Source: an uncultured bacterium (lineage in GTDB: Bacteria; Poribacteria; WGA-4E; GCA-2687025). Taken from it: 64,000 nucleotides of DNA. The stretch spans positions 353-64,352 of the forward strand of contig CAYYPK010000032.1 of the NCBI GenBank assembly GCA_964473525.1, in the 5' to 3' direction. The translations under genes were made by a program, and so were the position numbers. Of this stretch, positions 57,374 through 60,880 are shown piece by piece (within the stretch, counting starts at the first letter, position 1; each line of letters opens with the position of its first letter). The notes under the pieces are model-generated. The model had not been told where the DNA came from. It made no database searches and saw only the letters and a list, made by a program, of their open reading frames with translations.

Positions 57374-58558
57374 TCAGTCGATCGCGTGCAGACCGGCGCG
57401 CTCGCGCGCCTCGACGCGCCACGCCGCGTGAGTGAGTTCGTCGCGTAGCCTGGTCCACTCCTCGTCGCCGTACACGTTCAAGTCGTCGCGTGGGATGCCG
57501 GGCACCTCGGCGCCCAACGCCATCGTTCCGGCTTCGCGCTCCTCGGTCGCGTAGTAGCGGTCCATCTGGACGTTGTTCGCGGCCGCCCACGTCCCTATGT
57601 GCGTCTCGGGCATGGCCTCGATGGTTCCCGGTGTCCACGCGGGGAACCGCAGGCGTCCGTGTAGCCATGCCGCGACGGGACGAGTAACGAAGAACGGCCG
57701 ATGGGACGCGTCCGGGTCGAACCCGACGTCGAATGCCGCGGCGCCGTTCCCAATGCGTTGCACGGTCCTTGCGCGGAGATCCTCGAAGAAGGACTCGCCG
57801 TGGTTGGGTATATTCACCACTTCGTCCCGCAGGCCGTTGTACAGCAACGTGGGGCCGCGCGCGGCGTGCATTGCGTAGAGTTCAGCGCCACGGTCGCCCA
57901 GGAACGAAAGCGCTCGGTACGGCGTGGCAGTGCACATGGGCTTTGTGTTGTCCCAGTATTCGTCCGGCCCGTCCAGGTTGCCGCCGCCCGCGTGCACGCA
58001 CGCGTGGATGCGGTCGTCGACCGCGCCGGTGATCGCCACGACGTACGACCCCAGCGAATACCCGACGGCAGCGATGCGCGTATCGTCCACGTCGGCCCGC
58101 CCGCGCAGGTAGGACACGGCCTGCATGAGGTCGGCCATCATGAGACCCGCTACCCAAGGAGCCAGCCGCTCTGGTTCCTCCACCGCGTCGTGCGCGCGAG
58201 TTCCCGACCGCCGCTCGACGTTGCGTTCGCCCTCGCCCGTGGGATCGTACGTCAGGACCACGGCCCCCGCCCGCGCGTATAGGACGCCGGTGTAGAACGC
58301 GTACCAACTGTACTTGTCGCCGCCGTGGCCGTTCACAACGACGACCGCTGGCGCCGGGGCGTCGGCGGCGTGCGCGGGCCGATACACGATGGCTGGCACG
58401 CGCATGTCGAATTGCGTGCCGAAGCTAATGCGTTCAGCGACGACGCGCGCCTCGGGCTCGAACGAGCCGTGGATCTCCGCGCGTGGCTGGGGCAGCGGCG
58501 TGGGAACGTGGAACGTCGCGAGGATCCGACGTCTTGCGTCGTGTGGTTGTCCAGGCAT
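57374..58558 (-). CDS. Alpha/beta hydrolase (acetylxylan esterase / dienelactone hydrolase-like)
   Basis: VNGHGG, YDPTGEGER, nucleophile elbow GYSLG and C-terminal His (SHRP). Confidence 0.82.
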   Translation of the reverse strand: MPGQPHDARRRILATFHVPTPLPQPRAEIHGSFEPEARVVAERISFGTQFDMRVPAIVYRPAHAADAPAPAVVVVNGHGGDKYSWYAFYTGVLYARAGAVVLTYDPTGEGERNVERRSGTRAHDAVEEPERLAPWVAGLMMADLMQAVSYLRGRADVDDTRIAAVGYSLGSYVVAITGAVDDRIHACVHAGGGNLDGPDEYWDNTKPMCTATPYRALSFLGDRGAELYAMHAARGPTLLYNGLRDEVVNIPNHGESFFEDLRARTVQRIGNGAAAFDVGFDPDASHRPFFVTRPVAAWLHGRLRFPAWTPGTIEAMPETHIGTWAAANNVQMDRYYATEEREAGTMALGAEVPGIPRDDLNVYGDEEWTRLRDELTHAAWRVEARERAGLHAID

Positions 58559-58670
58559 GGAGTCCGAGTCTCTGGAGCTGTCGCGTCTGAGGGCAGCTTA
58601 CCGCATCACCCGGCCGGCGCCACCCGTCTCGTAGTCCGAGCCGCTCGCAGGTCGGTCAGAGACCCTTCGC

Positions 58671-58709
58671 AAAAAAACTCTTGACAGGCGTATTGGAATG
58701 GCCGAGAAT
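58671..58709 (+). promoter_or_regulatory. Sigma70 promoter with A-tract UP element (A7-CTC-TTGACA-N17-GAGAAT)
   Basis: Perfect -35, 17-nt spacer, 4/6 -10 and an upstream A7 run. Confidence 0.7.
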
Positions 58710-58715
58710 GGGGTC

Positions 58716-59000
58716 AGAGGTTTAGCGAGTTCACTACTGAACTACTCGCCCCCTATCTTGCGAATTATCGACGACGTGGTAACGGATTCGCCTGTGGCCC
58801 CTTGGTGTGGGTAACGGGGCCGCTGGCAAACGAGCGTGGAGCCACCAATCTGCTACTTGGTGACTTCACGGTACGCATGTTTCTCCACGATCCCCGTGGG
58901 TGAAGACAGCGCGGGGGTTGTATGCGTACCTCTTCTCCGGGCCTGTTTTCTTCTTAGCCGTGAATGGGCGGCCGCCGTTTGGGTGGTCGCCCGTTTTTTG
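58716..59000 (+). ncRNA. Candidate stand-alone structured non-coding RNA of unknown family
   Basis: Lies between a promoter and an intrinsic terminator; four internal hairpins with G-U pairs; no credible ORF and no downstream co-oriented gene. Confidence 0.6.
58963..58999 (+). terminator. Intrinsic (Rho-independent) terminator
   Basis: GGGCGGCCGCC-GTTTG-GGTGGTCGCCC 11-bp stem followed by GTTTTTT. Confidence 0.85.
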
Positions 59001-59410
59001 TGCCTCCTTCGCCCTGATCCCAGGCGAACGCTGCGGCGTGGCTTGTGCGAAGCACGCCGCCGCGCGACCGTGCCTTGCCGGCGGCTGAGTCGGTGCACGC
59101 GTAGCGCCTGAGTTGCCGCGGGCGATCCCCGCGAGCCGTCGGAACGTCGTCTATTGGACCACGACGACCCCGCGTTTGTCAGTTGGGCCGTACCTCATCG
59201 ACGTGCAGCACGGCTTAGAGAGGGGCGGCCGCTCGGGGCTCGCTGGGCAGGAGCGTTACGCGCTGTCTTGCGCTGGCCTCAGCGCGTCGGCCAAGGCAGG
59301 TAGGATGGCCCGCTCGCCGCGAAGTTATAGGGCACAAGGCCAGTGGCGCGATTGCGCCGCGCGCCTCGGGCGCCGCTGTCGGATACGACCGCGTGCAGAT
59401 CCGGCTTGGG

Positions 59411-60880
59411 CTAGGTCGTCACCGAGTAATTCGGCGCTTCCTCCGTGATGACGACATCGTGCGGATGGCTTTCGCGGACGCCCGCGCTCGTGATCTGCAC
59501 GAACTGCGCGGTCTCACGCATGTCCGCGACGGAACCAGCGCCACAGTAGCCCATTGCGCTACGCAAGCCACCGACCAGTTGATAGGTCAGGTCGGCGAGC
59601 TTGCCCTTGTAGGGGACGCGTCCCTCGATGCCCTCTGGCACGAGCTTGCGAAGCTCGACATCTCCCTGCAAATACCGCTCGCGACCCCCGCGCTCACGCA
59701 TCGCCGAGAGGGAACCCATGGCGCGGTACACCTTGAAGCTGCGACCCTGGTAGATAACGGTCTCGCCGGGCGACTCGTCGACGCCCGCGAACAATGAACC
59801 GACCATCACGGCGTTCGCTCCGGCGCCGATCGCCTTCGCGATGTCGCCGGAATATCGCACGCCACCGTCCGCGACGATCGGCACGCCCGCCGCGTTTGCC
59901 ACTTCCGCGCACTCCAGGATGGCCGTTATCTGCGGGACGCCTACGCCGGCTACTACGCGCGTCGTGCAGATGGACCCCGGCCCGATGCCGACCTTGACGG
60001 CGTCCGCCCCGGCGCTGATGAGGTCTCGCGTGGCCTCCGCCGTCGCCACGTTGCCCGCCATGATCTGGACGTCCGCATGGCGCGCCCGGATCTTCTCGAC
60101 CGCTTCGAGGACGGCCACCGAGTGGCCGTGCGCGGTGTCCACGGCGAGGACATCGACTTGCGCCTCGATCAGGCCGTCCACCTCGTCCATCGCCGCAGGC
60201 GCCGAGACCGCCGCGCCCACGCGCAGCCGCCCCTGGGAGTCCTTACACGCGTCGGGGTATTTGATGATCTTGTTGATGTCTTTGATCGTGATGAGACCGC
60301 GGAGCTGGCCTGCCCCATCGACGATCGGCAACTTCTCGATGCGATGCTCCTGGAGGAGCTGCGTCGCCTCGTCCAGCGTTATGCCCTCGCGCGCGGTCAC
60401 GAGACCCTCGTGCGTCATCAGCGAGCTGACCTCGAGGCTCTCGTCGGTGATGAACCGCAGGTCACGGTTCGTGACGATGCCGACGAGCCGGCCGTCATCC
60501 TGGATCACTGGGAACCCGCCGATGCGGTAGTGCTCCATCAGCGCCAGAGTTTCCTGCACGGTCTGGGTCGGCCGCAACGTGATGGGGTCAACGATCATCC
60601 CGCTCTCGGAGCGTTTGACGTTGTCCACCATGTGGATCTGGTCTTCGATGCCGCAATTGCGGTGGATGATCCCGATGCCGCCCTCGCGGGCAATGGCGAT
60701 GGCAAGGTTGGCGTCGGTGACGGTGTCCATCGCCGCGCTGATGATTGGGATGTTGAGCGTGATGCCGCGAGTAAGCTGGGCGCTGGTGTCTACGGCTGCC
60801 GGGTGGACATGAGACTTCTGCGGAACAAGGAGGACATCGTCGAACGTGAGGGCTACCGCGCCGACCTTGTCGCGGGTCAT
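59411..60880 (-). CDS. guaB: IMP dehydrogenase
   Basis: [11 protein letters not shown] pair, [19 protein letters not shown] and PEGIEG. Confidence 0.97.

Follow-up and report, generated by a model that had tools for sequence, protein, structure and literature searches.

A structured small RNA family with an invariant pyrimidine-rich 3' stretch in uncultured marine Poribacteria

Among described small RNAs (sRNAs), GcvB is a multi-target regulator in which a long conserved single-stranded region serves many mRNAs, and ArcZ and RprA combine a variable 5' part with a conserved 3' part beside the terminator. MmgR, according to a review, is a 77-nt Hfq-dependent sRNA of the Alphaproteobacteria for which an anti-Shine-Dalgarno (anti-SD) motif has been predicted as the targeting element (PMC7143759). 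Here, we describe a gene for a noncoding RNA (ncRNA) in an uncultured member of the Poribacteria, located on the + strand of a 64,000-nucleotide (nt) stretch of DNA (the window, to which all coordinates refer) that sits on contig C32 of the 7.46-Mb, 113-contig assembly of genome G000. The gene is almost certainly real, transcribed, and structured, with a predicted transcript of ~284 nt (58716-58999; the 5' and 3' ends are deduced from the spacing to the -10 box and from the U-run, respectively), and it establishes a new family within a known kind of RNA, narrowly distributed in a few uncultured marine Poribacteria. A preliminary description of the locus, made from the sequence alone, had suggested an undescribed class, which is correct in the sense of a new sRNA family but not in that of a new kind of molecule.

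The RNA ends in a 3' module common to four lineages of Candidatus Poribacteria and made of a hairpin, a pyrimidine-rich stretch of 29 nt (CTCCGGGCCTGTTTTCTTCTTAGCCGTGA, CUCCGGGCCUGUUUUCUUCUUAGCCGUGA; 58935-58963, + strand), which we propose as the working part of the molecule, and a terminator. The layout resembles that of MmgR, in which a pyrimidine-rich, anti-SD-like stretch also lies directly 5' of an intrinsic terminator, but it does not imply membership, since our RNA is ~284 nt long, has a large 5' domain, and belongs to Poribacteria in whose carrier genomes Hfq was not found. The corresponding Rfam model (RF00519, suhB; MmgR/alpha-r8) matches the stretch and terminator (58928-59007) with 16.8 bits against a gathering threshold of 41 (E = 1.1), and the cmscan alignment sets GUUUUCUUCUUAGCC against GUUUcCUCCCUAgAC of the model, a resemblance only, our RNA being U-rich where the model has C. 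A conserved unpaired stretch of tens of bases, as in GcvB, would explain an invariance that goes beyond a short seed, although no sequence relation or Rfam match connects the two RNAs and no Hfq was found here. The modular conservation is like that of ArcZ and RprA; the differences are that the 5' domain and the 3' module of our RNA are joined in RNA-library contigs and that no sequence relation to either sRNA was found with Rfam. As for 6S RNA, our RNA would be similarly abundant, strongly promoted, structured, and a few hundred bases long, but 6S RNA is a rod with paired ends and a central bubble, whereas this one has several hairpins, an unpaired 3' stretch, and a terminator.

No Rfam 15 family matched anywhere in the 64-kb window at the gathering thresholds, and at E <= 10 the region 58500-59450 gave five matches, all far under threshold. 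The same scan of contigs from the other family members (L012, L017, L018, and L016) gave above threshold only an unrelated RNase P RNA in L017. Below threshold, the locus and the other lineages gave matches to mir-483, suhB/mmgR, naRNA4, Ysr141, CcsR1, Hrs13, and sR32. Among them, CcsR1 (RF02791), a CCUCCUCCC-motif RNA, weakly matches 58785-58874 (13.6 bits, gathering threshold 65.3), and Hrs13 (RF02631) weakly matches the 3' module of G004 (23.3 bits, gathering threshold 52). The naRNA4 match (59338-59406, - strand, 15.9 bits) is at chance level. ARAGORN detected no tRNA or transfer-messenger RNA (tmRNA) in 58000-59600, and the genome has a standard tmRNA elsewhere, with the tag ANTEMALAA. 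Likewise, signal recognition particle (SRP) RNA was found elsewhere in all five carrier genomes and RNase P RNA elsewhere in four of them. These results agree with the preliminary description, which had seen no tmRNA, RNase P, SRP, or 6S signature and had proposed the Rfam search. ARAGORN also called a second, permuted tmRNA in G000 (661 nt, tag AAHEPVVRYTLAVG) that looks like a false positive. A literature search of titles and abstracts found no published description of regulatory or small RNAs in Poribacteria. A "Poribacteria-1" motif was reportedly part of a 2017 survey of structured RNAs; if it is included in Rfam 15, it is not this RNA.

Transcription unit, fold, and presence in RNA libraries

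The RNA was compared with sequences from two genomes of the same genus as G000 (G001 and G002), two from other genera of the same family, f1 (G003 and G004), a metagenome contig that represents a fourth lineage (L018), and a partial metagenome contig from a genus-level relative of G000 (L016). A sigma-70-type promoter, TTGACA-N17-GAGAAT, with 10 of 12 consensus matches, is found at 58681-58709 on the + strand (-35 box, 58681-58686; -10 box, 58704-58709). Directly 5' of the -35 box there is a tract of seven adenines (58671-58677, + strand) that may act like an UP element. A comparable A-run precedes TTGACA in G001, G002, G003, and G004, but not in L018, while TTGACA at the equivalent position and a -10-like box are present upstream in all six full-length family members. 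At the other end, the intrinsic terminator has a G+C-rich stem of 10 to 11 bp (58966-58992, + strand) followed by U6 (58994-58999). A consensus scan of 58300-59500 found a single promoter-like site, against 0.1 expected from shuffles, and a single terminator-like site; the two sites lie on the + strand, correctly ordered.

BLAST retrieved whole-length homologs in the two same-genus genomes, with 85% and 82% identity. In the three-way alignment with G000, identity begins at the A-tract and promoter and stops a few bases past the U-run, and the flanks are unalignable. Since identity is confined to the region from promoter through terminator, the locus is a self-contained transcription unit. Both the element and its 29-nt stretch are single copy in G000.

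The minimum free energy (MFE) of the 285-nt + strand sequence is -125.1 kcal/mol (z = -4.49), and none of 200 shuffles folded as well. The - strand also folds well (-107.5 kcal/mol, z = -4.23); hence, folding energy alone cannot assign the strand. The + strand is assigned because of the promoter, the terminator, and changes in relatives whose G-U pairs can form on this strand alone, in agreement with what had been proposed from the G000 sequence: in H3, G>A at 58839, C>T at 58843, and A>G at 58844 form G-U or A-U pairs on the + strand but would be mismatches on the - strand.

Both the MFE and the RNAalifold structures consist of separate hairpins plus the terminator. In the MFE fold, hairpin H1 (58725-58749, + strand) has an outer stem GCGAG/CUCGC that is kept in G001 and G002 with another loop, while the inner AGTTCA/TGAACT pairing that had been proposed is not kept in these genomes. 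Covariation was assessed in an alignment of the four genus-level sequences (G000, G001, G002, and L016), in which H1 could not be scored because L016 does not include it. The RNAalifold consensus retains H2, H3, H4, and the terminator, together with a small hairpin, UUAUCGA...GUGGUAA (58765-58782, + strand), that was absent from the preliminary list and has six of its seven pairs invariant. H2 (58790-58827, core 58794-58823, + strand) has 12 pairs, three of them changed on both sides and six on one side, and H3 (58835-58870, + strand) has 11 pairs, one of them changed on both sides. The long hairpin H4 (58870-58930, + strand), which is the first part of the conserved 3' module and holds GUGAAGACAG in its apical loop, has a basal stem of nine invariant pairs and an inner stem of 14 pairs, two of them changed on both sides. 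The terminator stem, also a scored helix in this alignment, covaries across lineages in an alignment of seven sequences.

In total, the consensus has 72 pairs, and 97.6% of the cells form standard pairs. Seven of the 72 pairs are changed on both sides, compared with 2.8 +/- 1.3 in column shuffles (only one of 500 shuffles reached seven) and with zero to two when the partners were slid by one to three columns. This covariation is good support for the predicted helices, short of proof, four related sequences being few. Paired changes are also found among the metatranscriptome variants described below, at 58794/58823 (G-C to A-U), 58799/58818 (C-G to U-A), and 58844/58861 (A-U to G-C). In contrast to these helices, two repeats to which attention had been drawn, TTGGTG and GGTAACGG, are present twice in G000 but not kept in relatives, so that the alternative fold proposed from the two TTGGTG copies has no comparative support, and no meaning is supported for the GGTAACGG repeat.

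Part of the RNA sequence was present in 20 RNA runs from 14 studies (word search, with small word shares), four of which, from four studies, were compared with 58500-59200; our reading of expression uses these four only. All four metatranscriptomes contained contigs 90 to 95% alike, that is, from relatives of the G000 strain. The seven listed contig pieces jointly span 58724-59001 with nothing upstream, and depth was zero in all four runs in every bin of 58500-58715 and 59004-59200. A 244-nt contig (58727-58968, word depth 57.6) falls entirely inside the predicted transcript, while another of 1093 nt (depth 44.2) starts at 58724 and, beyond the terminator, continues in sequence that does not resemble the window. 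The 5' domain and the 3' module are found together within single contigs, none of the contigs reaches into the promoter, and several stop within the RNA. This pattern of coverage is what would be expected of a discrete, abundant transcript, to be read with the caveats that the flanks of the relatives may merely fail to align and that the runs were selected using this very sequence.

The A-tract, the promoter, the hairpins, and the terminator with its U6 are thus all found where the preliminary description had placed them. Its proposal of an independently transcribed ncRNA is borne out by conservation confined to the promoter-through-terminator region, by covarying helices, and by RNA-library contigs that cover the transcript only; the search for relatives and for covariation that it had suggested gave the same-genus homologs and the excess of paired changes reported above.

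Conserved 3' module, variable 5' domain, and distribution

G003, G004, and L018 have only the 3' part in common with the G000 type. The 29-nt stretch is identical in all seven family sequences, which come from the four lineages, and in each of the seven a stable hairpin of 44 to 67 nt, differing in sequence, ends 5 to 8 nt before CCGGGCC. The 5' domains cannot be aligned between lineages and range from ~154 nt (G003) to 252 nt (G004). The 5' domain is a fast-evolving region of several hairpins that is wholly different between genera. In three of the four lineages, a motif GAAGA(C/A)A is found at or close to the apex of the last hairpin (58902-58909 in the window, and the equivalent positions of L017 and L018). 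The motif and part of the invariant stretch are complementary, but pairing between them has no statistical support across lineages, and the hairpins are otherwise unrelated.

The distribution of the family is narrow. BLAST against 41 relatives gave a match in five of them, and within the order, which comprises only eight genomes, six were matched at E <= 0.01. The match in G005 covers just 35 nt of the terminator and was judged spurious because both the covariance model and the pattern search miss it. A covariance model of the 3' module detected the RNA in five of the 151 genomes that sample the class: besides G000, it was found in four of seven genomes of family f1 and in none of the 143 genomes of other families. 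In genera g4 and g5 (three genomes, 61 to 91% complete), neither BLAST nor the model nor the 29-mer at up to three mismatches found a credible match. The RNA is hence confined to three of the five genera of one taxonomic family. Exact-pattern scans retrieved three genome records and seven metagenome loci. Five of the seven loci are family members, three of which duplicate G001 or G004 sequences, and the remaining two represent one phage sequence, considered below.

Possible modes of action of the invariant stretch

We infer, with moderate confidence, that the RNA acts in trans through its invariant stretch by anti-SD-like pairing. The strong sigma-70-type promoter drives its synthesis and the intrinsic terminator ends it. 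The motifs CUUCUCC and UCUUCUU of the stretch could pair with purine-rich, GGAG-type ribosome-binding regions of several mRNAs, and this pairing would alter the translation or stability of the targets without Hfq. We favor this reading because of the anti-SD-like motifs, the lack of a conserved internal partner for the stretch (none was found within the molecule), and its position beside the terminator, as in many trans-acting sRNAs. Both motifs resemble the anti-SD sequence of 16S rRNA. The 16S 3' end of G004 reads CACCTCCTTTCT; hence, the Shine-Dalgarno sequence is canonical there. Motifs of 16S and 23S rRNA were not found in the G000 assembly, in which the rRNA operon is therefore unassembled.

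Other RNA partners were considered and rejected. The duplex energies of the stretch with the 16S and 23S rRNAs of G002, G003, and G004 reached -34.5 at best, inside the range of 20 shuffled versions of the stretch (-27.3 to -36.3), and z went no lower than -2.1 for 51 tRNAs, RNase P RNA, and SRP RNA. None of these RNAs thus suits the stretch better than it suits shuffled versions. An internal pseudoknot between GAAGACAG of the H4 loop and CUGUUUUC of the stretch is possible in G000. However, the pairing of the stretch with the 5' domain beats dinucleotide shuffles only in this genome (0.015, against 0.165 to 0.59 in the other five sequences), and for this reason the pseudoknot was rejected as a feature of the family.

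Several points weigh against this explanation. The search for mRNA targets yielded none. Short BLAST gave perfect complements of the stretch in G000 no longer than 13 nt, and of 49 sites of at least 11 nt only nine are close to a plausible start codon. In the eight genomes of the order, a search for a 19-nt complement of the center of the stretch, with up to three mismatches, found the sRNA gene itself (in five of the eight) and, as the sole nonself match, one three-mismatch site in G003. In a genome-wide duplex scan, 17,119 seeded sites formed a continuum with no outlier (best nonself value, -47.3; 0.1 percentile, -41.3). The 29 invariant bases far exceed the usual length of a seed, and the stretch is only modestly more unpaired than the rest of the molecule in partition-function folds (unpaired fraction 0.34 to 0.62 versus 0.31 to 0.35). 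Furthermore, the RNA-library contigs show neither strand nor true ends, and such libraries may include DNA. Finally, domains of Hfq (PF17209), ProQ/FinO, and CsrA were each found in none of the five carriers (G000 to G004), whose completeness of 64 to 95% leaves their absence unproved. Since they were not found, pairing would be independent of chaperones or use a protein not yet known.

That no target was found, together with an invariance much longer than a seed needs, leads us to keep a second explanation at roughly half the weight of pairing. Tentatively, the stretch and its flanking hairpins might dock a conserved protein, RNA polymerase, or the ribosome, and the RNA would act by sequestration or as a scaffold, in principle like 6S or CsrB-type RNAs, instead of by pairing with mRNAs. 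A run of 29 bases unchanged in four lineages is more in keeping with a fixed macromolecular partner than with a short seed, the order has no sizeable complementary site, and a strong promoter with an A-tract and word depths of 44 to 58 in small RNA libraries suit an abundant RNA of the housekeeping type. 6S RNA (RF00013) was also undetected in all five carriers, but the miss carries no information and reveals no complementary distribution: five further genomes of the class without our RNA (G005, G006, G007, G012, and G023) likewise have no match over the cut-off, and the model scores in only five of 14 control genomes. Neither the repeated binding motifs of a sponge nor the rod with a central bubble of 6S is present, the fold being multibranched, and confinement to three of five genera would be odd for a core housekeeping role. 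A more specific version, in which the RNA would be an abundant global regulator that sequesters or scaffolds through this docking site, with an exchangeable 5' domain, in a lineage without recognizable 6S, Hfq, ProQ, or CsrA, is more speculative still. Separately, G005 contains two subthreshold 6S-like matches of 21.5 bits each, 279 nt apart (L033 and L034; C16:90694-90800 and 90973-91079), which suggest that this relative, in which the sRNA is missing, has a structured element repeated in tandem.

It is improbable that the conserved region codes for a very small protein, either as an mRNA or as a dual-function RNA, with the C terminus (S/T)PGLFSS ending at a UAG codon (58955-58957). This frame is open upstream in all four lineages, with possible starts, and would give MRTSSPGLFSS in the G000 type (58922-58957), VSACVSSPGLFSS in G004 (open for 87 codons), VVCLHTPHACASSPGLFSS in G003, and VCASTPGLFSS in L018. 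However, no synonymous change separates the four lineages in the six codons they share (from CCG to the second UCU), the invariance extends six bases beyond the stop, through 58963, and the Phe and Ser codons end in U despite a genome of 66% G+C (62 to 67% among the carriers). The type of start, the length (from 11 to 80 or more codons), and the N-terminal sequence are unrelated between lineages, and the starts fall within the stable stem of H4 and lack a clear Shine-Dalgarno sequence. The constraint therefore acts on nucleotides, and the small open reading frame (ORF) MRTSSPGLFSS, named in the preliminary description as a possible objection, has no recognizable coding selection; a tiny peptide as a second function is nevertheless conceivable.

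The neighboring genes make it very unlikely that the RNA is a cis-acting element, that is, a leader or attenuator, a 3' untranslated region, or an antisense RNA to the convergent gene. In the window, it lies between a divergent alpha/beta-hydrolase gene (57374-58558, - strand; the earlier assignment as a hydrolase is confirmed by Pfam) and a convergent 489-amino-acid (aa) ORF (59411-60880, - strand), previously identified as guaB. In G001, G002, and L018, the RNA is arranged tail-to-tail with a homologous convergent gene of 186 to 200 aa without a Pfam family, as a cis element might be, but G000 carries that gene on a different contig (C37), and the putative guaB, 411 nt away, is the convergent neighbor there. 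G003 (GH127 and TGT genes) and G004 (a PhyH gene) have other neighbors, there is no + strand gene 3' of the terminator within the window, and in each lineage the RNA is preceded by a promoter of its own. That neighbors differ between lineages also agrees with the earlier view that there is no cis target.

Some features of these surroundings can be added. The 186- to 200-aa protein has a hydrophobic N-terminal segment (L010:4256-4816, + strand; L011:4836-5396, + strand; L018:756-1358, - strand), and its G000 copy has moved to C37:47417-47974, the breakpoint being directly after the sRNA terminator. The 411-nt gap from the terminator to the stop of the 489-aa ORF (59000-59410) is G+C rich, has no notable ORF, and cannot be aligned with G001 or G002. 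In G004, the RNase P RNA gene (L017:1578-1961, + strand) shares a contig with the sRNA gene, the two being ~6 kb apart and on opposite strands.

An antisense RNA against foreign DNA, with the stretch targeting a phage transcript, is hardly credible: a marine phage contig (L013/L014) in which a 72-aa ORF contains 24 nt perfectly complementary to the stretch (window 58938-58961; L014:113-331, + strand; L013:33-54; ORF ...QEAKKKTGPER...) is a single sequence from a 22-mer scan of a very large collection, its loci have 48% G+C compared with 62 to 67% in the carriers, the lysine-rich peptide encoded at the site could be a chance product, and named phages match at chance level only (E about 6). The contig also carries genes for a 698-aa portal protein and a 472-aa large terminase. 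This complement, the only long one found anywhere, is probably due to chance.

The RNA is solid and probably abundant, yet of a kind regularly turned up by comparative genomics. Its importance comes from being a well-bounded, apparently abundant family in uncultured Poribacteria whose carriers are without detected examples of the usual sRNA chaperones. It is unusual for a hypervariable 5' domain to be combined with a 3' stretch that is both invariant and unpaired, and this merits a search for targets or partners. The RNA has a clear comparative signature and appears in marine metatranscriptomes of many studies, and the 29-nt stretch is a compact and specific marker for these lineages in RNA data. 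The family could thus open a route to the posttranscriptional control of the phylum Poribacteria.

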